A stretch of DNA of 64,000 nt from Bacilli bacterium (GTDB lineage Bacteria > Bacillota_I > Bacilli_A > RF39 > UBA660), in contig JAVBQF010000005.1 of assembly GCA_031549195.1 (NCBI GenBank), forward strand, positions 13,462-77,461, given 5' to 3'. The translations under genes and the position numbers were made by a program. A model generated the notes under the pieces. It made no database searches. It saw only the letters and a program-made list of their open reading frames with translations, and was not told where the DNA came from. Shown here piece by piece: positions 152-60,746 of this stretch. How positions within the stretch are numbered: position 1 is the first letter of the stretch; every line of letters starts with the position of its first letter.

Positions 152-340
152 TTCCCTCACCTCTAAAACTATTATATAGTGAAGTTAATTATAAATATAA
201 TACATATATGTCATATTTAATATAACCAACAGTTATGAATTCAAAGACTATATTAACAATTAATATTTCATAAGCAATTCAAAATAATCCCTATCATTTA
301 CTATATTGCAAATAAAATACTGTAAGTTGATAGATATGAT

Positions 341-907
341 TTAAATATGATATTGCTTTAGAGCCTGTAGTAACATTTTACATTCTAGTTGTCTTGGCGC
401 AAAAGATAAATTACTAGTTCCATTTTCAGTTTTTTCAAACTCTTGAAAATCTATAAACTTAAGTTCAGATATTTCTCTTGGGTTTATTCTCATTGAAGCT
501 ATTTCTAGATTTGTCTTATATAAAAAAGTATCAAAAAACATATTACTTGTTCCATATGTTTCGAAATCTCTTCTCAAGCAATATAAATATATTAACTCAT
601 TTTTTTCAGCTTCAATTCCAAGTTCTTCCTTTATTTCTCTTATTGCAGTATCAATAGGTAAATCACCAGAAGTTATATGTCCTGCTACAGATATATCCCA
701 TAAACCCGGGAAAATCTTTTTGCTTTCGTCTCTTTTTTGTATTAAGATTTGATTTTTATCATTTATTATCCAAATATGCACAGCTTTATGATACAAAAGT
801 CTCTCTTTAGCATCTACTTTAGTGGTAACTTCTCCTGTTAAAGCTCCGTTTGCATCATAAACATCTACAAGCTCATTTGGATTATATTTTAAAATACTAT
901 TACTCAT
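341..907 (-). CDS. NUDIX hydrolase
   Basis: Nudix box GHITSGDLPIDTAIREIKEELG (Gx5Ex7REUxEExGU) in 188-aa ORF. Confidence 0.8.
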   Translation of the reverse strand: MSNSILKYNPNELVDVYDANGALTGEVTTKVDAKERLLYHKAVHIWIINDKNQILIQKRDESKKIFPGLWDISVAGHITSGDLPIDTAIREIKEELGIEAEKNELIYLYCLRRDFETYGTSNMFFDTFLYKTNLEIASMRINPREISELKFIDFQEFEKTENGTSNLSFAPRQLECKMLLQALKQYHI

Positions 908-3179: not shown

Positions 3180-4007
3180 TTATATTTCATATAAAACAAC
3201 CGTCTTCTCTTTTCCGTATTTCTCATAATCAGTTTCTGCAACAGCTTCAACATAATCATCAAATGTGTTTGAATCAAAAGTTTTGATATTGCTAAAGAAG
3301 TCACCTCTATTAAAATAATTTATAAATCCATCAGAATATACAATTACATAGTCTCCCTTACTAATTTTTACAATTCCATTTCTTATATAATGCTCTGCTT
3401 CTTTCTCTCCAGTTATAGCACCATATGAATATTTATTTTCAGGTTTATTTCTATAATCTCGTCTTACAATTAAACGAGCATTAGGATTATGCCAAGGATA
3501 TCCTTTTGCATCAAAATACTTATCAACTCTACTCATATCATCATCTGTTTGAAACTTAATGTTACCATTTTTATCAAATACAATTATTCCGCAATCACAA
3601 ATATATGCATATTCTAGCAACTCATTTCTAATCCTTATTGCAGATGCAACTGCACCATAATAATCATTAACTAAATAATCAACTGTTTCAATATATATAT
3701 CATTGACATGTTTCACTTTTTCATTTGCACTAATAAGCATTGCTGTCAATGTTAACTTCTCACCAGACATTTTTTGAAATTGATTACAAATAGTCTTAGA
3801 AGCAATTTCTGCACCGCTTGGCCTTGGATATTGTTTTATCATCTCTTCAAAATTTAATATTGATAAATCTTCCACAGAATCTCTAGTTATTCCATCTGCA
3901 ACAACTGCCATACTATCTTCACTATAGTATGAATCTTCTATTGGAAAATTACTATTCTTTGTTTTTATATTTTCATAAGTTTTAGAATATAAAAGCATTT
4001 TACCCAC
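3180..4007 (-). CDS. PP2C-family (PPM/SpoIIE-like) serine/threonine phosphatase
   Basis: MAVVADGIT (metal-binding DG motif) and VIVYSDGFINYF C-terminal aspartate motif typical of PPM phosphatases. Confidence 0.6.
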   Translation of the reverse strand: MGKMLLYSKTYENIKTKNSNFPIEDSYYSEDSMAVVADGITRDSVEDLSILNFEEMIKQYPRPSGAEIASKTICNQFQKMSGEKLTLTAMLISANEKVKHVNDIYIETVDYLVNDYYGAVASAIRIRNELLEYAYICDCGIIVFDKNGNIKFQTDDDMSRVDKYFDAKGYPWHNPNARLIVRRDYRNKPENKYSYGAITGEKEAEHYIRNGIVKISKGDYVIVYSDGFINYFNRGDFFSNIKTFDSNTFDDYVEAVAETDYEKYGKEKTVVLYEI

Positions 4008-4122: not shown

Positions 4123-4209
4123 TGGTGCCCGAGGTCGGACTTGAACCGACATGATATTGCTATCACTGGATTTTGAGTCCAGCGCGTCTACCGATTTCAC
4201 CACTCGGGC
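4123..4209 (-). tRNA. tRNA-Leu (anticodon CAA) with long variable arm and encoded CCA
   Basis: Reverse complement reads GCCCGAGTGGTGAAATCGGTAGACGCGCTGGACTCAAAATCCAG...GTCGGTTCAAGTCCGACCTCGGGCACCA: 7-bp acceptor stem, anticodon loop CTCAAAA, long variable arm, GTTCAAGTC T-loop. Confidence 0.85.
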
Positions 4210-7311: not shown

Positions 7312-7731
7312 TTAATCTTCTATAAATAAAATATTGTTATTAAAATCTTCTTTTAATTCTCTATAACTATTCTCATCACCAATAAAAATTACTTCGTCGA
7401 ACTTATCAATATGAGATAAGTAATTATTATAATTATTAGAGATGTCTAAGATAATAGATATATTTGATTTTAAACTTTCAAAATTCTTTATTAAATAATG
7501 AGATATTCCTAAATAGTTATTATTTGTAAATACTATTACATTCTTTATGTTATATAGAATTGCACTAACGATAACCTTGTATGTAATATATGGATTACCT
7601 TCTGATAGAACTAGTATATTATTTAAACCATTTAATTCCTTAAGTACTTTTATATTATCTTTAATACTTAATAAAAACTCCTCAATATTAAATATATCCC
7701 CCATTACTTCTTTATCGACTTCATACATCTT
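7312..7731 (-). CDS. Hypothetical protein (start uncertain; 7839 in ORF track would overlap upstream gene)
   Basis: Open frame with coding-like composition; no recognisable motif. Internal Met MYEVDK avoids 95-nt overlap with 7745..9388. Confidence 0.35.
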   Translation of the reverse strand, partial: KMYEVDKEVMGDIFNIEEFLLSIKDNIKVLKELNGLNNILVLSEGNPYITYKVIVSAILYNIKNVIVFTNNNYLGISHYLIKNFESLKSNISIILDISNNYNNYLSHIDKFDEVIFIGDENSYRELKEDFNNNILFIED

Positions 7732-7744
7732 ATATAGTATTTCT

Positions 7745-9388
7745 CTATTTTCCAGCAGAAGTTGTTGGTACTGCTCCAAGAGCTCTACATTTTGCACTAC
7801 TATCACCATCCAATGATTTAACACTTCCGAGTTGTTCACCTAAAATTCTAAGAGTATCTAAATGATCTGTTGTATATCCTGTACTATTAATTTCTCTTTG
7901 AACACGATCCTGCCATGTAGGAACATTTAGTCTTTTTTTAGTATGATAAATTCTCTTAACATTTGAATTTTCTGTACTATTTATACGTTCTAATATTTCA
8001 GGTTTTGATAACTGTGACAACTCGATAAAATTGTTAACTGACATTACATAAATAGCCTGCCCAGTTGCTGGTATATTACGTCCTTCATCTAAGTAAAATC
8101 TTTCAAATATTACTTTACCATTAGGATAAACATACCCAACATACCCAGAAAATTTATCTTTTCCTCTTAGTTTAATATCATATCCTGTACTATCAAAGCA
8201 AGCCAATTTTTCTTCCAATAACGCATTGGCAGATTCTTGTTCTAGCCTAAGTTCTTCAGAGCTTTTCCTAGTTTTCATTCTTAGTGACTGTGTCCCATTT
8301 GTTATTGATTCTATTTTTTCTCCTTCTGGTATAACTTCCCAGTTAAGTGCAGTCTCAGCAATAAGTGCCTTTCGTCTTGCAATCTCTTCTTCTCTTGCAA
8401 TCTCAGCCAATCGTTGTTCATATGCCTGACCCATTGCATCTTTTGCTCCCTGATAACTTCCAGCATAATCTATTTTTCCATTAAGTGTTTTATCTGGTGG
8501 CAATGAGTTAATAAATTTTGTGTATATCTCATTAAGTAAACTTGCTGTTACAGTAGTATCAAGTCCAGAAATATTAATATATCTTATTCTGCAACTTTTA
8601 TCTTCTTGACCTCTTAAACTATTTATTGCTAACAAAGTACTATAACCATCGTTAAGTAAGTCCCCAACAGTTTCATCTTTTATATTTCCAGCTACAAAAC
8701 TTTCATAACAAATTAAAAGTGCTAACTTTTCTAAATTAATATCGTCCAATATTGAATAATCCAATTCTCTATCAAGCTTCTCTATGAAATTAGGTAAATA
8801 TCTAATTAATTTAATTATTCTATTTTTTCTATATTCATTAAAATCCATAATAGTAGCTGTTGGATGATTCTTTTTAAAACGTTTATATTTACCCTTGGTA
8901 ATTTCTGACTCATCTGGTAAAGTTCTTATATCAAAACTTGCAACTTCTTTCCTTTTTTCCCTTAGGGATTCAATTATACGATTTAACAATTCATCATTAG
9001 ATAACGATAATACCTCATCCCTATCTATATTTAATTCTTCATATGCAATTAGTTTCGTTAATAAAGCAACTCTACATCCTTTAAATATTCTACGAGTTAA
9101 TTTATTATAATCATCTTTACAGTTAGGAGCAAGCTCGATTATCCAAAACAAATCTTCTGGCTGACAGGCTATATCACTATCTGTAATAATATCACCAGAT
9201 CCAGATTTCCACCAATTCAGTAATTTATTTTTTAGGTTTTCTTTTGCTTTTTCATTATCACAACACGCCAATAAACTTTCTATTGTTATAGGAACAGAAG
9301 TAGGATGTGGATAACTTAAGTTAATCAATGCTTTAACATCATGATTTTCAAATATTTTTGTATAATCAGGTAATTCTGATGCTTCCAT
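7745..9388 (-). CDS. Large hypothetical protein (547 aa), coiled-coil centre, no recognisable catalytic motif
   Basis: Long uninterrupted ORF with good RBS context; central AEIAREEEIARRKALIAETALNWE coiled-coil-like stretch; Cys-poor, soluble. Function unknown. Confidence 0.6.
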   Translation of the reverse strand: MEASELPDYTKIFENHDVKALINLSYPHPTSVPITIESLLACCDNEKAKENLKNKLLNWWKSGSGDIITDSDIACQPEDLFWIIELAPNCKDDYNKLTRRIFKGCRVALLTKLIAYEELNIDRDEVLSLSNDELLNRIIESLREKRKEVASFDIRTLPDESEITKGKYKRFKKNHPTATIMDFNEYRKNRIIKLIRYLPNFIEKLDRELDYSILDDINLEKLALLICYESFVAGNIKDETVGDLLNDGYSTLLAINSLRGQEDKSCRIRYINISGLDTTVTASLLNEIYTKFINSLPPDKTLNGKIDYAGSYQGAKDAMGQAYEQRLAEIAREEEIARRKALIAETALNWEVIPEGEKIESITNGTQSLRMKTRKSSEELRLEQESANALLEEKLACFDSTGYDIKLRGKDKFSGYVGYVYPNGKVIFERFYLDEGRNIPATGQAIYVMSVNNFIELSQLSKPEILERINSTENSNVKRIYHTKKRLNVPTWQDRVQREINSTGYTTDHLDTLRILGEQLGSVKSLDGDSSAKCRALGAVPTTSAGK

Positions 9389-9523
9389 ATTATCTTCTCC
9401 TTTTTTACTTTAATTTATTAATAACACGAATTAATTGACTGTTATTTTATCACATTTTCTCTTATAAATCAAGAATTAATAAAAGCCATTCCTTTCAAAA
9501 TTAAATATTAATACACTTATAAT

Positions 9524-9551
9524 TACAAAATAGTACCGTTTATGGTACTAT
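9524..9551 (-). terminator. Rho-independent terminator downstream of gtrA-like gene
   Basis: Minus-strand RNA AUAGUACCAUAAACGGUACUAU hairpin followed by UUUUGUAAUU. Confidence 0.5.
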
Positions 9552-9578: not shown

Positions 9579-9998
9579 CTAATTATCTAATGATTTTCCA
9601 AAGGTGAATATCTTATTTAAAATAAATTGGGTAACAGCAACAAATACTATTGATAATAGCTTAACAATAGTCTCATCGAATCCCATCATTTTTACAAAAA
9701 CATGCATTATAACCATAGATAGTACTAGACCTATATATCCAACAAAATAAAATCTCGCGGCTCTTTTTACTACTTTATCTTTCTTTTTAAAATTGAAGTA
9801 AGTATTCAAGAAAAATGACAATGTTATCCCTAAATTTATACTTATAAAATTTGCCAAATAGAAATTTAAATTAACATTTCTTAATAAAGTAAAACTTATG
9901 GCATCTAATGCTGCGGATGTCGCGCCAATTATACCATATAATAATATTTCTTTAATAATTGGATATTTCTTTAATAATCCCATTAATTTTTTCTTCAT
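9579..9998 (-). CDS. GtrA-family membrane protein (polysaccharide/teichoic acid glycosylation flippase-like)
   Basis: 139 aa, four TM helices, GtrA signature layout (LYGIIGATSAALD...FVGYIGLV...FILNKIFTF). Confidence 0.8.
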   Translation of the reverse strand: MKKKLMGLLKKYPIIKEILLYGIIGATSAALDAISFTLLRNVNLNFYLANFISINLGITLSFFLNTYFNFKKKDKVVKRAARFYFVGYIGLVLSMVIMHVFVKMMGFDETIVKLLSIVFVAVTQFILNKIFTFGKSLDN

Positions 9999-12290: not shown

Positions 12291-13799
12291 TTAAATTAAC
12301 TTATATAATAAAAATCCATCACTATCCATAATAAATTTATAATTATTTTCTAATATTTCCATCATTTTCCGTATAACATATCCTTCACTTTCAATTACTT
12401 CAATATTTAAAAATATATACTTTGGCTTTTCCCTATTTATATCTTCAATATATTCATGTGCTATTTTATTATCAACTTCACTAATAGGAAATTGATAAAA
12501 ATATTTCGATGCTGATAAAGAATTAGATACTAAGTATATCCTTGAAAAGTTACCAACAACTGTAATCTTATCAGTAATCAAAACTTCTTTTTCAATATAA
12601 TAAGAAATATCTTTTATAGTATTTTTACATTGAGTACTAAATATTTGTCTTTGGAGTATTTTATAAATTGCATTATAGTCACTCTTAAATGCATAAATAT
12701 AAAATGCCGACGAAATTATTAAAATAGAAGCAACAACTAATTTCCTGTTTTTAATAAACTTTTCTACTATACTTTCGAAAAAATCAAAAGACATACCTAC
12801 AAATATTGATAAAGGTGGAATAAGAACCAATGCATAATGCAGATAAATTCTTCCTGATAACGATAATAAGTAATATGATAAAAATAAATATAGAATACTT
12901 ATAATCAAAAACAAGCGATACTTCCTTTTGCTAGAAATAAATAAGATAGATAATGCAAAGATTGAAACTTTTAATAGATTATTTTTTATAAAAAATTGAA
13001 ATGCTGTTATTTTTTCTAAATAATTAACAGAAATATATGAAAAGTTAAAAACAAAATAACTGTCAAAAAATGGCTGTAATGTATTGGTAAGTAAAAAGAA
13101 AATTACAAATGGTAAAATCACACTAAAAAAGCCTATTCCCATTAAAACTAATGATTTAAATGATTCTTTGAAACCTTTTTCACAGAATATTTTTATGATC
13201 ACTGCAGGAACAAATACAATCCATAAAGCTATCATATTCTGCCTTAAGAAAAATACAGTTGCACAACAAATCCCTATTAATATATTACCAAAACCATTTA
13301 TTCTCTCATTTTTTATAAAATATTTTGTAAAAATATATAATGATATAAACATAAAAGGCAATGCATATTCTTCTACAAGATTTCCACCTTCTAATAATTT
13401 AATTATACTACTATAAGCTATAATTGAAGAAGCAATTGAGACTGTCTTACTAGCAAAAAGTCTTATCATTTTATAACAAAATATTATGCCAACCATAAAA
13501 AATACAGTTTCAATTATATATATTCCAAGTTCATTTGGAACAAAAGAACCAATATAATTTATAAGGTATATAATAGGTCCTTTATGATCAAATAAATCGC
13601 GATAAGGTAATAAACCATTACCCAGTTGTTTACCTATATACATGAAAACCGAACTATCTGTAAACATACATATAGGATTAAAAGGTGAAAAAGTACTGCT
13701 AATTAAAAGAATACCAGATACTATAAAAAAGATAATGTATTGAAAATAATTAATTATGGCTTTTTTCATATTATTTAAGGCATTCACTACTTCACTCAC
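12291..13799 (-). CDS. Polytopic membrane glycosyltransferase, GT-C fold (PMT/ArnT-like)
   Basis: About 12 TM helices; first extracytoplasmic loop carries DSSVFMYIGKQLGNGLLPYRDLFDHKGP motif typical of GT39/GT83-type lipid-linked sugar transferases. Completes GtrA/GtrB/GT-C trio. Confidence 0.6.
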   Translation of the reverse strand: MSEVVNALNNMKKAIINYFQYIIFFIVSGILLISSTFSPFNPICMFTDSSVFMYIGKQLGNGLLPYRDLFDHKGPIIYLINYIGSFVPNELGIYIIETVFFMVGIIFCYKMIRLFASKTVSIASSIIAYSSIIKLLEGGNLVEEYALPFMFISLYIFTKYFIKNERINGFGNILIGICCATVFFLRQNMIALWIVFVPAVIIKIFCEKGFKESFKSLVLMGIGFFSVILPFVIFFLLTNTLQPFFDSYFVFNFSYISVNYLEKITAFQFFIKNNLLKVSIFALSILFISSKRKYRLFLIISILYLFLSYYLLSLSGRIYLHYALVLIPPLSIFVGMSFDFFESIVEKFIKNRKLVVASILIISSAFYIYAFKSDYNAIYKILQRQIFSTQCKNTIKDISYYIEKEVLITDKITVVGNFSRIYLVSNSLSASKYFYQFPISEVDNKIAHEYIEDINREKPKYIFLNIEVIESEGYVIRKMMEILENNYKFIMDSDGFLLYKLI

Positions 13800-13916: not shown

Positions 13917-14267
13917 TTAATTTTTTGCTTTAAACAATAAGCTGAGTATAAATGTAAATATGATTGCTGATGTTATTCCTGCTGCTGTTAAATCAAACAT
14001 GCCTGTGAATATTCCTATAAATCCTAAATCTGCAGCTTTTTCTAAAGCGCCATGTATTAGTGAATGTCCAAAACTTGTAATTGGTACTAAAGCACCGCCT
14101 CCGACATATTTGATTATTTCGTCATAAATACTAAAGGTATCTAGTGCTGCTCCAATAACTACAAATAAACTTGTAATATGCCCTGCTGTTAGTTTTGTAT
14201 TATCAAGTATTACTTGTCCGATTAAGCAAACCAATCCACAAAATAAGAACGAATATAAATACATCAT
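13917..14267 (-). CDS. spoVAEb: Stage V sporulation protein AEb
   Basis: 116-aa membrane protein; follows spoVAD with 4-nt overlap; GHITSLFVV...GGALVPITSFGHSL pattern shared with SpoVAC/AE family. Confidence 0.8.
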   Translation of the reverse strand: MMYLYSFLFCGLVCLIGQVILDNTKLTAGHITSLFVVIGAALDTFSIYDEIIKYVGGGALVPITSFGHSLIHGALEKAADLGFIGIFTGMFDLTAAGITSAIIFTFILSLLFKAKN

Positions 14268-15265
14268 TTTAACACCTCCAAGCTAACAGCATGAGCAATG
14301 GATAGAATGTTTTCTTTTTGAAATATAAATGTTGGTGAGAATAATGCTCCTGTTGCTACAACTAACACTTTGCTTAATTCTCCCTTTTCTAGCATCGGAA
14401 GTATTTTAGCATATGTCACTAATGAACAACAAGCTGGTCCAGAGCCTCCAGCCATGCATTCCTCTTGTTGATCAAGATCATATAGCAATGTTCCAGTATC
14501 ATTATAATTATTACTTATATCTATCCCATATTCACTATTCATATATTCAATTAATATCTCTTTCCCATATGTCCCAAGATCACCTGTCAATATCAAGTCA
14601 TAATAACCAGCTTCTCTTTTCATGTCTTCAAGATGTTTTTTTATTGTAGCACCTGCCGCTACTGCCATTGCCGCTCCCATATTAAGTGGATCATTTTGAG
14701 CCATATCACATATTTTACCAATTGTAGAAGACTCTACTTTTATTTTACCTTTATTTGACAAGAATAAGGATGCTCCTCCTGTTGCAGTGAATGTTGCTGT
14801 TTTAGGTTTAGGTGCTCCATATTCAGTAGGATTCCTAAACTGTTTTTCACTGGCCATATTATGTGAAGAAATAGCTGTAATACAATTTTTTATCTTCCCT
14901 GTATCTATTAGTGATCCACCTACTATAATTGCTTCCATACTAGAAGCACAAGCACTATATATGCCCAGATGTGCTATATTAAATTTTTTAGCAGCATAAG
15001 TAGAAGCGGTTGTTTGATTAAGTAAATCACCTGATATTAATAAATCAATATCTTTTTTATCTTTCTTAATCTTTTTTAAAAGAATATCTATACTTTCTTC
15101 TTGTAATTTGACTTCTGCCTTCTCCCAAGTATTTTCTCCATTATATAAATCATCGTATGACTTATCAAACTTTCCTTTTAATGGTCCATCGTTTTCATAA
15201 GGGCCGACTACTGTAGCATATCCATTTATAAAAACATTACTATATTTAAAAGTCATATTAAGCAC
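14264..15265 (-). CDS. spoVAD: Stage V sporulation protein AD (thiolase-like fold)
   Basis: 333 aa; KYSNVFINGYATVVGPYENDGPL N-terminus and thiolase-like Cys region; positioned between spoVAC and spoVAEb. Confidence 0.85.
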   Translation of the reverse strand: MLNMTFKYSNVFINGYATVVGPYENDGPLKGKFDKSYDDLYNGENTWEKAEVKLQEESIDILLKKIKKDKKDIDLLISGDLLNQTTASTYAAKKFNIAHLGIYSACASSMEAIIVGGSLIDTGKIKNCITAISSHNMASEKQFRNPTEYGAPKPKTATFTATGGASLFLSNKGKIKVESSTIGKICDMAQNDPLNMGAAMAVAAGATIKKHLEDMKREAGYYDLILTGDLGTYGKEILIEYMNSEYGIDISNNYNDTGTLLYDLDQQEECMAGGSGPACCSLVTYAKILPMLEKGELSKVLVVATGALFSPTFIFQKENILSIAHAVSLEVLK

Positions 15266-15701
15266 CTCCTAAAAATAAGTATCTTATCATTCCAAAGAAC
15301 CAAGCTGATACTATACCATATAAGATAACACTACCTGCAAGTTTGAAAATATTACTTCCAAGTCCATAGATTGGTCCTTCAGTTTTATATTCAATACCTG
15401 CACTTGTCATTGAATGTGCAAATCCTGTTATTGGAATGATTAAACCACACTTTGCAGCAGTTACCCATTTGTCAAAAAAACCTAGGGCAGTTAATACTGA
15501 TGCTACAAATACTAAGGTAACTATCATAAATACTGATGCATCTTTTGTAGGAATATCCAAATAATATGAATATACATCTATTAAAATTTGCCCTACTGCT
15601 CCAATCATTCCACCAATCATAAAAGAAATAAAAGCATTGTATGCTCTTTTCTCTGTTGGCTTATGTTTTTCTACTATTGTTTTATAATCCTTTTTTTCCA
15701 T
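15258..15701 (-). CDS. spoVAC: Stage V sporulation protein AC
   Basis: 147-aa 4-TM protein, paralogous to downstream SpoVAEb (GLIIPITGFAHSMTSAG), first gene of spoVAC-AD-AEb trio immediately downstream of sigF as in Bacillus. Confidence 0.8.
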   Translation of the reverse strand: MEKKDYKTIVEKHKPTEKRAYNAFISFMIGGMIGAVGQILIDVYSYYLDIPTKDASVFMIVTLVFVASVLTALGFFDKWVTAAKCGLIIPITGFAHSMTSAGIEYKTEGPIYGLGSNIFKLAGSVILYGIVSAWFFGMIRYLFLGGA

Positions 15702-60394: not shown

Positions 60395-60746
60395 AATAAT
60401 ACTTTATAAGCCATTTTCTGTACCTATTACTAGGTGACAAACATCTATCTACCATTACTGGTCCCTACATCAGTTATGATTCCTTAGTAGGACTCCTCTA
60501 CCAAATTTGAGTTTCTCGCTCGTGGGGTTTATCGCGTTCCATTTCCACTGTTTCCAGTATCTTCGTCACTATGACACTTTTACAGTTACTCTAATCATAG
60601 CCAAAGCCTTAGATCATTTCACAGCCGTTAGATTAACTACCTAGAGTTATTTTTTTCTCTAGCACGATCACTAAAGACATTCCAGTCTTTGCGAGTATGG
60701 ACTTTCCTCTACATTATAAAAATGCAGCGTTTGTCAAAGTACTATT
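60395..60746 (-). ncRNA. rnpB: RNase P RNA, bacterial type B (rnpB)
   Basis: Minus strand contains universally conserved GAGGAAAGUCCAUACUCG (P4 5' strand), GGAACGCGAUAAACCCCACGAGCGAGAAACUCAAAUUUGGUAGAGG, GUAGAUAGAUGUUUGUCACC and ACAGAAAAUGGCUUAUAAAG (P4 3' strand), collinear with B. subtilis rnpB; GC-rich island in AT-rich genome; immediately downstream of gpsB as in Bacillus. Confidence 0.85.

Follow-up and report, generated by a model that had tools for sequence, protein, structure and literature searches.

The gene at positions 7745-9388 of the window, the 64,000-nucleotide stretch of DNA analysed here, encodes a 547-aa protein that belongs to a large protein family (FAM), with homology spanning the full length of the protein as established by sequence comparison. 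We tentatively favour the reading that FAM is a resident factor of gut Bacilli with a ligand-binding C-terminal domain, coupled in the subfamily of the window to a small partner, c1. In this proposal, FAM would be a cytoplasmic protein of a large family in uncultured gut Bacilli including the RF39 lineage, and in the window's subfamily would form a two-gene operon with c1, the two genes being translationally coupled. A cluster of nearly invariant polar and aromatic residues in the C-terminal domain, comprising His482, Asp/Glu429, Lys/Arg430, Lys/Arg462, Arg479, Asn423, Ser458, Tyr416/421/447 and Trp350/492, would constitute the functional site, which may bind a ligand and perhaps act chemically on it. 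The most plausible ligand would be a nucleic acid or some other molecule that carries phosphate. The helical N-terminal part and c1 might provide lineage-specific contacts with partners or targets, and the protein would act as a resident cellular factor rather than as a mobile defence gene.

The open reading frame is real. It starts with ATG and is preceded by a strong ribosome-binding site and its own promoter-like site (Table 1). A frame of 1.6 kb in a genome of 27% GC, with homologues and with dN/dS values among them of 0.07-0.30, is far above chance expectation, and the identical gene call was found on an independent Logan contig. The neighbours are those first annotated, with GtrA upstream at 9579-9998 (PF04138, E 9e-21) and ScpA (PF02616) and ScpB (PF04079) downstream. 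The hairpin between gtrA and FAM is followed on the minus strand by TTTTGTAATT and is thus a possible terminator of the gtrA transcript. FAM occurs only once in the window. At 90% identity clustering, FAM, c1, ScpB and GtrA are each singletons (4/4 proteins looked up), and among the species-representative genomes, which do not include that of the window, the best match of FAM reaches 53%.

Table 1. Features of the FAM-c1 locus in window coordinates.
Feature	Position	Strand	Remarks
FAM, CDS of 547-aa protein	7745..9388	minus	ATG start, stop codon included (ORF list)
Shine-Dalgarno (SD) sequence GGAGAAG of FAM	9394..9400	minus	5 nt 5' of ATG; GGAG core 8 nt away
Sigma-70-type promoter-like site TTGATT-17-TAAAAT with upstream TG	9444..9472	minus	Consensus scan, pattern match only
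9-bp hairpin between gtrA and FAM	9530..9551	minus	Scan gave plus strand; minus-strand reading from sequence
FAM N-terminal and middle region, aa 1-340	8369..9388	minus	Mostly helical and acidic, with two small beta elements; weak conservation
Ala/Glu/Arg-rich long helix, aa 311-349	8342..8458	minus	Joins the two parts of FAM; AlphaFold model
FAM C-terminal alpha+beta domain, aa 344-520	7829..8359	minus	Conserved; alpha+beta sandwich of ~170 aa
His482 codon CAT	7943..7945	minus	Sole residue invariant in 123/123 aligned FAM members
Unconserved FAM tail, aa 528-547	7748..7807	minus	Conserved N-terminus of c1 encoded here in alternative frame
c1 partner gene	7312..7809	minus	165 aa from ATG 7809, stop included; alternative GTG 7797; automatic call ATG 7728 gives 138 aa
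SD-like GGATGGTGAT inside FAM coding region	7802..7811	minus	4 nt 5' of c1 GTG 7797

The protein had been described as an orphan, a description that no longer holds. At E<=1e-3, an exhaustive phmmer search recovered 379 representative clusters, mostly 500-540 aa in length and with the same architecture as the window protein; 244 remain at E<=1e-10. The leave-one-out family HMM (alignment A1) covers residues 10-516 of the window protein with an E-value of 1.9e-93, and residues 1-340 by themselves give E 2e-23. The family was missed by a word-index homologue search, as the full protein, the C-terminal domain and a 123-sequence profile returned only the query and P0002, or nothing. The 53 genomic loci recovered all lie in metagenome-assembled genomes of uncultured gut Bacilli (49 assemblies), which carry, with few exceptions, the labels uncultured Bacilli, Tenericutes, Mollicutes, Ca. 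Coprovivens or 'Mycoplasma sp. CAG:956'. Ca. Coprovivens is placed in the GTDB order RF39, family CAG-1000 (PMC8035907). The taxonomic restriction seen here is based on one peptide pattern and one genome collection scanned. Four assemblies carry two loci, and locus L009 contains a tandem duplicate. Several large neighbour genes (c14, c21, c46, c116, c18, c13 and others) were considered as divergent FAM paralogues and rejected, with hhalign probabilities of 3% or less.

The protein could not be placed in a curated family, as the initial annotation had found by eye. Searches of Pfam, NCBIfam, PADLOC, PHROGs and PDB sequences gave no match, and no well-known housekeeping family emerged from the profile and structure searches. 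The Pfam scan covered 11 members of FAM, the window protein included, and 21 of c1; for NCBIfam these numbers were eight and four. A weak match to DUF6842 was dismissed, its 16.7 bits falling short of the cutoff of 27. PDB sequence-profile searches with the alignments A1, A4 and A5 returned designed helical bundles or noise only. The AlphaFold model and fold search suggested initially were carried out; the full protein was modelled with a pLDDT of 82.3 and the domain with one of 86.4, and the fold search yielded weak matches only.

In the model, FAM consists of a helical N-terminal and middle region and a C-terminal alpha+beta domain, joined by a long helix. Column conservation is 0.10-0.35 in the N-terminal part, compared to 0.47-0.57 in the C-terminal part. 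The C-terminal motifs quoted in the initial annotation are present and make up the best-conserved part of the family. The core of the C-terminal domain is mildly basic (median pI 8.8) and the remainder of the protein is acidic. With regard to nucleic-acid binding, the mean net charge of this core is modest, only about +2. The protein is soluble as expected, its Kyte-Doolittle hydropathy over 19 residues peaking at 0.90, and no signal peptide, transmembrane segment or secretion-related Pfam domain was found. The central Ala/Glu/Arg-rich coiled coil described at first is borne out in composition, as residues 318-357 are 52% Ala, Glu and Arg, but not in structure: AlphaFold predicts a single helix at residues 311-349 with poor heptads. 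Judged by the hydrophobicity of the heptad positions, the best register over residues 306-352 has hydrophobic residues at 4 of 14 a/d positions. Thus, the segment is modelled as a long helix, and a coiled coil is undemonstrated. The GC content shows a bump of 0.358 over the same segment. The C-terminal tail has pLDDT values below 50 at residues 533-547 and column conservation of 0.04-0.13; homologues terminate at this point, in a stop/start overlap of the ATGA type.

The tail of FAM overlaps the downstream gene c1. The overlap of about 95 nt noted at first is what the ORF list gives against an ORF at 7312-7839, but GTG 7839 is simply the start of the longest ORF. Alignment of 21 homologues (A5) places the start of c1 at ATG 7809 or GTG 7797, resulting in a true overlap of 53-65 nt. 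In line with one of the two explanations offered initially, translational coupling, the overlap reflects genuine coupling with a conserved partner. The automatic call at ATG 7728 removes the overlap, but at the cost of the conserved N-terminal helix (A5). We take GGATGGTGAT, which lies upstream of GTG 7797, to be SD-like on the basis of the Bacillota anti-SD consensus. Across the recovered loci, c1 lies directly downstream of FAM in 20 loci and in the window, and directly upstream once; the order of the two is inverted in L014, and a further gene separates them in L015. The usual overlap is 4 nt (ATGA), with FAM ending at 7390 and c1 starting at 7387 in L010, L016, L019, L024 and L040. The c1 protein is typically about 150 aa long. 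The window ORF at 7312-7809 matches the c1 HMM with E 1.6e-36, a score that is partly circular because A5 includes the window sequence, and it aligns over its full length with 20 other c1 sequences. For c1, no match was found in Pfam, NCBIfam, PHROG, PADLOC or PDB. The possibility that c1 is a remnant of gamma-glutamyl phosphate reductase (ProA) or an ALDH-like protein was rejected, as hhalign of A5 against E. coli ProA gave a probability of 0.3% and no PDB or Pfam match to ALDH or ProA was found.

In a neighbour-joining tree, the c1-linked FAM proteins form one major clade with the window protein inside, and the other major clade, half of the family, has no adjacent c1. Therefore, c1 is not essential to the core activity. 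What had been regarded as a single-gene unit is, in the window's subfamily, a two-gene FAM-c1 module. From the gene order and the coupling we infer that the two proteins may interact.

The conserved residues of the C-terminal domain are concentrated in the motifs WExIPxG, GYxGYxYxNGxVxFE[KR]FY and AxYVM, followed by F454, S458, K462, R479-x-Y-H482 and W492. The signature is complete in the window protein (W350, G415-Y416, Y421-x-N-G424, E429-[KR]430, A445-x-Y447-x-M449, F454, K462, R479, H482 and W492), where six additional residues lie between H482 and W492. Mean column identity is 15%, yet the residue at position 429 is acidic and that at position 462 basic in every sequence, and 93% retain Arg479. 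One alternative reading makes the C-terminal domain a novel kind of enzyme, for instance a nuclease, a phosphodiesterase or a transferase, with His482, Asp/Glu429, Lys/Arg462 and Arg479 in the active site and with the N-terminal helices setting the substrate specificity. This reading overlaps with the ligand-binding one but commits to catalysis. The invariant His, the acidic and basic positions, the conserved Arg, Asn, Ser and three Tyr residues, and the location of R-x-Y-H at the end of a beta strand with a helix after it in the model speak in its favour. Nevertheless, we consider it possible but unlikely, since no enzyme family, including the Pfam nuclease families, was matched by sequence or profile, and the best fold neighbours of the domain are non-catalytic and weakly matched. 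Known catalytic motifs, compared by eye, do not fit either. The GYxGYxYxNG segment is a single hairpin without the YIG strand of GIY-YIG; E429 and K430 are adjacent, in contrast to the (D/E)xK of PD-(D/E)xK, and K484 is variable; R479 and H482 are separated by two residues, compared to Rx4-6H in HEPN; and neither HKD (HxKx4D) nor DRGH is matched. In addition, no conserved metal-binding residue was seen in helix 492-500.

FAM is under purifying selection, with omega (dN/dS) of 0.07-0.30 in both halves. In the rplM-rpsI syntenic clade, identities are 46% for FAM and 38% for c1, compared to 89% for L13 and S9 and 85% for the adjacent methyltransferase. The dS of FAM-c1 is about 1.0, against 0.7-1.0 in the non-ribosomal neighbours, and dN is 5-10 times higher. 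As the dS equals that of the neighbours, the FAM-c1 pair is vertically inherited; on the same ground, we rejected allelic replacement or horizontal transfer as the reason why close species show low identity in FAM. Synteny is stable over nine species. In other clades, the recurrent neighbours of FAM are rplM, rpsI, trpS, rRNA-modification genes, RNase III, EngB and TypA-like genes. The comparison of a resident with an accessory gene drew on loci selected for carrying FAM. The linkage to scpAB is found in the window only, and the neighbours differ between clades. In the nearest relatives found (ScpA 57-61% identical), the gap between spoVA and scpAB is occupied instead by genes for a clostripain-like peptidase and for RNHCP.

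The initial annotation had pointed to this interval as a place where accessory or defence genes sit. The interval is indeed variable, but a defence role is unsupported. If FAM, with or without c1, were an undescribed anti-phage or abortive-infection system, its variable N-terminus would serve as the sensor and its conserved C-terminal domain as the effector, in line with the fast evolution, the paralogues, the differing content of the slot in the nearest relatives and the variable genes that adjoin FAM at some loci. We judge this very unlikely. PADLOC-DB 2.0 contains no family matching FAM or c1 at E<=1, and no copies were found in phage, plasmid and IMG/VR collections. The recurrent neighbours are housekeeping genes and never defence, integrase or transposase genes, and the stable synteny, the dS shared with the neighbours and the purifying selection acting gene-wide, similarly in both halves, argue against it as well. 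Typical defence genes move horizontally, unlike FAM, whose taxonomic range appears narrow.

Similar to toxin-antitoxin, toxin-immunity and two-gene defence modules, FAM-c1 encodes a large protein and, directly behind it in a stop/start overlap, a small partner, and differs from them in having no PADLOC match, in its vertical syntenic descent among housekeeping genes and in the absence of the partner from half of the family. That FAM-c1 is itself a toxin-immunity or toxin-antitoxin pair, in which a C-terminal toxin is neutralised by the downstream small protein, is highly improbable. The conservation is the reverse of that in polymorphic toxins, FAM being conserved at the C-terminus and variable at the N-terminus, and FAM lacks domains for secretion or trafficking as well as a signal peptide and transmembrane segments. 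Moreover, the adjacent c1 is dispensed with in half of the family, and the gene order is inverted in L014 and interrupted in L015.

Proteins that combine a helical scaffold with a globular domain are often fast-evolving, and FAM shares both this architecture and the fast evolution. FAM might act as a scaffold or structural component in the cell cycle, in chromosome organisation or in sporulation. ScpA/ScpB and the SpoVA genes are its neighbours in the window, CotJ-like genes lie near some members of the family, and sporulation has been predicted for RF39 (PMC10868615), all of which agree with this reading. However, we hold it to be improbable, as the scpAB linkage is confined to the window and neighbours vary by clade, and the strictly conserved polar residues resemble a ligand site more closely than a surface with a structural role alone.

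In the guts of humans and animals, RF39-type Bacilli are widespread; they are uncultured and have small genomes of which much is unannotated. The ligand-binding reading that we prefer has a bolder extension, in which FAM and c1 would constitute an undescribed two-protein machine, a core, order-wide invention of RF39-type reduced-genome gut Bacilli, with the C-terminal sandwich as a new nucleic-acid-binding or catalytic domain, distantly similar to the TnsE C-terminal domain. It would perform or replace a basic chromosome- or RNA-associated step that is done differently in model Bacillota. We consider this extension rather unlikely. If FAM-c1 turned out to be a core factor specific to the lineage, this would help to explain how reduced genomes manage without some standard components, and a new enzyme or nucleic-acid-binding fold would be of general value. 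At present, FAM is one uncharacterised family among many, 'new' in the sense of undescribed, and no new principle is shown. It is nevertheless a family of several hundred clusters with a constant architecture, a confident predicted structure, an invariant histidine and a coupled partner, missing from curated databases. FAM-c1 offers a concrete, testable target, with two HMMs and two structure models available and a small set of residues suited to mutation.

Among known systems, the Pfam lineage-restricted DUF families are similar to FAM in being conserved, confined to a lineage and without an assigned function, but FAM and c1 are covered by no Pfam or NCBIfam model in the copies searched. The C-terminal domain of TnsE from Tn7 (PDB 5d16) is among the closest known systems to the C-terminal domain of FAM. 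No tnsABCD or transposase-like neighbours of FAM were seen among the recurrent and selected neighbours, which were annotated by Pfam or by sequence. The domain was also compared with small alpha+beta sandwich proteins, namely Tll0839 (2plg), the integron cassette protein VCH_CASS14 (3imo), frataxin/CyaY, YjbR (2fki) and the type III secretion chaperone AvrPphF ORF1 (1s28), which show 4-14% sequence identity to it and no common motifs. The FAM domain exceeds these proteins in size, shares its polypeptide with a helical region of 340 aa and has a conserved set of His, Arg, Lys and Tyr residues of its own.

The initial annotation had called the 547-aa protein (FAM, a name also used here for its unnamed family) an orphan, which did not hold. 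Exhaustive HMMER search against 1.84 billion representatives retrieved 379 proteins at E<=1e-3 and 244 at E<=1e-10, mostly of 480-540 aa and matched at their C-terminus, with many alignments beginning at query residue 110-190. A word-index search returned only FAM itself and one 450-aa relative (33% identity across the C-terminal 157 residues). For fast-evolving families, the orphan call by indexed search is unreliable. A 123-sequence profile did not improve the word-index search (the query and one relative, versus the 379 found exhaustively).

An HMM of the family from which the window protein had been omitted aligns to residues 10-516 of that protein (E 1.9e-93); residues 1-340 by themselves score E 2e-23 against this model, and the homology therefore spans the full length of FAM. 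The gene is real and conserved, a member of a large uncurated family. Its ORF, neighbours and C-terminal motifs, as first annotated, were all confirmed by the ORF list, Pfam matches and family alignment. The sequence GGAGAAG ends 5 nt from the ATG. The upstream gene is GtrA-like (PF04138, E 9e-21); downstream, a small ORF is followed by ScpA and ScpB (PF02616, PF04079; independent Logan contig, identical gene).

Features of the window, of other FAM loci and of the FAM structure model
Feature	Location	Position	Strand	Remark
FAM ORF	window	7745-9388	minus	ATG start, 547 codons (ORF list)
Sigma-70-like site TTGATT-17-TAAAAT, upstream TG	window	9472-9444	minus	consensus pattern match
9-bp hairpin	window	9530-9551		after gene upstream of FAM
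PP2C/SpoIIE-like phosphatase matches	window	3180-4007	minus	275 aa; E 5e-4 and 6e-3, both below Pfam cut-offs
Single tRNA	window	4126-4209	minus	
Multi-pass membrane protein	window	12291-13799	minus	502 aa; heads amine-oxidase-like, GT2, GtrA block
SpoVA-like ORFs	window	13917-15701	minus	116, 333, 147 aa
Class B RNase P RNA	window	60402-60742	minus	267 bits
Tandem FAM pair	L009	4457-7969		104-aa gene (cluster c41) between, single c1 after
DUF4026/DUF2314 gene	L015	2801-4069		between FAM and c1; 4-nt overlap with c1 start
Variable rpsI-FAM gene	L010	3898-5727		
Variable rpsI-FAM gene	L019	4087-5679		
Variable rpsI-FAM gene	L022	3684-4982		
Variable rpsI-FAM gene	L040	1955-5682		
Small alpha/beta N-terminal element, then helical bundles	FAM model	to about residue 300		
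Linker	FAM model	before 311		low confidence
Helix	FAM model	311-349		
Strand	FAM model	350-353		WEVI
Basic loop	FAM model	354-376		variable
Sandwich	FAM model	377-399, then 451-457, 462-470, 492-500, 507-519		helix, five strands, four helices

Clustering of every ORF in the recovered loci revealed only one neighbour recurring across clades, the small gene c1 (143-156 aa), immediately downstream of FAM in 20 loci and the window, and upstream once. The usual junction in homologues is a 4-nt overlap of FAM stop and c1 start (c1 starts at 7387 and FAM ends at 7390 in L010, L016, L019, L024 and L040). An alignment of 21 c1 proteins contains a conserved N-terminal helix, L..E..IVEELL.IDN, whose codons in the window lie ahead of the automatically called start, ATG 7728; therefore the true start is ATG 7809 or GTG 7797, the second of these 4 nt past the SD-like GGATGGTGAT. 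The overlap noted initially is genuine, with an actual length of 53-65 nt; the former value of 95 nt came from the longest-ORF GTG at 7839. The final 20 residues of the window FAM, unconserved and with pLDDT below 50, look like a read-through extension over the ancestral stop/start junction. By neighbour joining (NJ), a c1-linked clade of the family separates from a c1-less one, and the window FAM falls in the former on a long basal branch. FAM is coupled to its partner gene within this subfamily. The coupling might be read as that of a toxin and its immunity protein, which we consider very improbable. Neither c1 nor FAM has a match in Pfam, NCBIfam, PHROG, PADLOC or PDB sequences. The idea of c1 as a ProA/ALDH remnant was rejected by hhalign.

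Four assemblies (Mycoplasma sp. CAG:956, CAKOSN, CAKOSD and CAKOZD) carry two FAM loci each, both copies in the c1-less clade, and in three of them each copy has its own synteny, kept across species. Upstream of a short, 440-aa subfamily (L036 and L052-L055, including the search relative P0002) lie genes for two large helical proteins, c21 (~630 aa) and c14 (~610 aa), and for a 95-aa protein, c19; c21 and c14 are weakly related (hhalign probability 74%), and a Pfam scan gave no match for c14.

FAM has evolved fast, by vertical descent and under purifying selection. Pairwise dN/dS is 0.07-0.30 (12 pairs), alike in the N-terminal 63% and C-terminal 37%. Over nine species with the rplM-rpsI-FAM-c1 arrangement, FAM averages 46% identity and c1 38%, where L13+S9 reach 89% and the methyltransferase 85%; FAM distances track ribosomal-protein distances (Spearman 0.75). 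Between L019 and L040, FAM and c1 show a dS of 1.0-1.1 with a dN of 0.28; the non-ribosomal neighbours show 0.7-1.0 and 0.01-0.08. Horizontal replacement as the source of the low identity is ruled out by a dS near that of the neighbours, and this dS with the raised dN indicates relaxed constraint in vertical descent.

When a single genome of each GTDB species was scanned for the motif GY[VI]GY[IVM]YxNG, 53 FAM loci emerged from 49 assemblies; almost all of these are MAGs that bear the label uncultured Bacilli, Tenericutes, Mollicutes, Erysipelotrichaceae, Candidatus Coprovivens or 'Mycoplasma sp. CAG:956'. GTDB places Candidatus Coprovivens, as genus UBA11963, in order RF39, family CAG-1000 (PMC8035907). 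Three of the bins with FAM are labelled Muribaculaceae or Roseburia; as the Roseburia-labelled L022 has the rplM-rpsI synteny of Bacilli MAGs and L017 has neighbours common to Ca. Coprovivens loci, these labels are probably wrong. Within this survey, the family was confined to MAGs of uncultured gut Bacilli, RF39 included. The closest match to the window FAM among species representatives reaches 53%, in the C-domain, so the window genome is absent from them; FAM, c1, ScpB and GtrA of the window are all four singletons at 90% identity.

Beyond c1, neighbours vary from clade to clade: rplM-rpsI and trpS upstream with SDR, rRNA methyltransferase-like and RluA-like genes downstream; RNase III and ZnuA; EngB and Ffh; TypA; pseudopilin-like genes; or CotJ-like genes. 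FAM was not found on mobile elements among the collections searched, with no relatives in IMG/VR, PLSDB plasmids or GenBank phages, and its loci have no recurrent integrase, transposase or recognised defence gene around them. The setting had first suggested a single-gene defence or accessory function; a new defence system appears highly improbable. No large neighbour gene is a hidden FAM paralogue (hhalign probability <=3%). In the rplM-rpsI clade, the variable genes between rpsI and FAM encode mutually unrelated 430-610-aa proteins, one inositol-monophosphatase-like and one an Rce1-like CAAX protease with a Zn ribbon; the other two have no Pfam match.

The nearest relatives of the window found are metagenome contigs with ScpA 57-61% identical. 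Their SpoVA-like genes (L057, L059, L060) are syntenic with those of the window at 53-72% identity. Between spoVAE and scpA the relatives carry a gene for a Zn-ribbon clostripain-like (C11) peptidase (736-888 aa) together with an RNHCP gene; the window has six other genes there, a four-gene glycosylation-like block and FAM-c1. At this evolutionary distance, the content of the slot varies from lineage to lineage. A scaffold role in the cell cycle or sporulation would suit the scpAB and SpoVA-like genes nearby; set against the changing neighbours of other clades, it seems improbable. The 502-aa membrane protein, which has no Pfam match at E<=0.001, could serve the glycosylation module as a glycosyltransferase or polymerase not yet described. 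The class B RNase P RNA and the tRNA both fit a Bacillota genome of low GC.

The AlphaFold2 model of FAM, built from the 123-member alignment, has a pLDDT of 82.3 and a pTM of 0.64. FAM is without a hydrophobic segment (19-residue hydropathy peaks at 0.90). Ala, Glu and Arg make up 52% of residues 318-357, where a coiled coil had been proposed; the model has a single helix with poorly hydrophobic heptad positions, so this label is not established. Despite a family mean column identity of 15%, the C-domain has, in the 123-member alignment, the consensus WExIPxG ... GxNxFxGYxGYIYxNGxVxFEKFY ... PAxxxATYVMxIxNFxELSKLSKxEII ... VxRxYHxxxW. His482 is invariant (100%), position 429 is acidic and position 462 basic in 100%, Arg479 is Arg/Lys in 93%, Lys/Arg430 and Asn423 are kept in 89%, Ser458 in 87%, and Tyr416, Tyr421, Tyr447, Trp350 and Trp492 in 90-99%. 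The C-core has a median pI of 8.8, and the remainder of FAM is acidic. This pattern of conservation and charge points to a putative specific ligand site and is also compatible with catalysis. By eye, the C-domain fits none of the GIY-YIG, PD-(D/E)xK, HKD, HEPN and DRGH nuclease motifs; a commitment to an enzymatic role, which the invariant histidine might invite, we consider somewhat unlikely.

We lean, at a little under even chances, to a model in which the C-terminal sandwich would be the working part, binding a ligand, possibly nucleic acid or some other phosphate-bearing molecule, and perhaps acting on it, while the variable helical region and c1 would supply lineage-specific contacts. It is unlikely that FAM and c1 together form a two-protein machine that is core across the order and whose nucleic-acid-binding or catalytic domain is new. 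Lineage-specific uncharacterised families are common among uncultured bacteria, and the evidence on FAM so far gives no pointer to a new biological principle. Since it shows the defining feature of no known family, FAM is placed under none; it is far from any described family, and new in the sense of undescribed.
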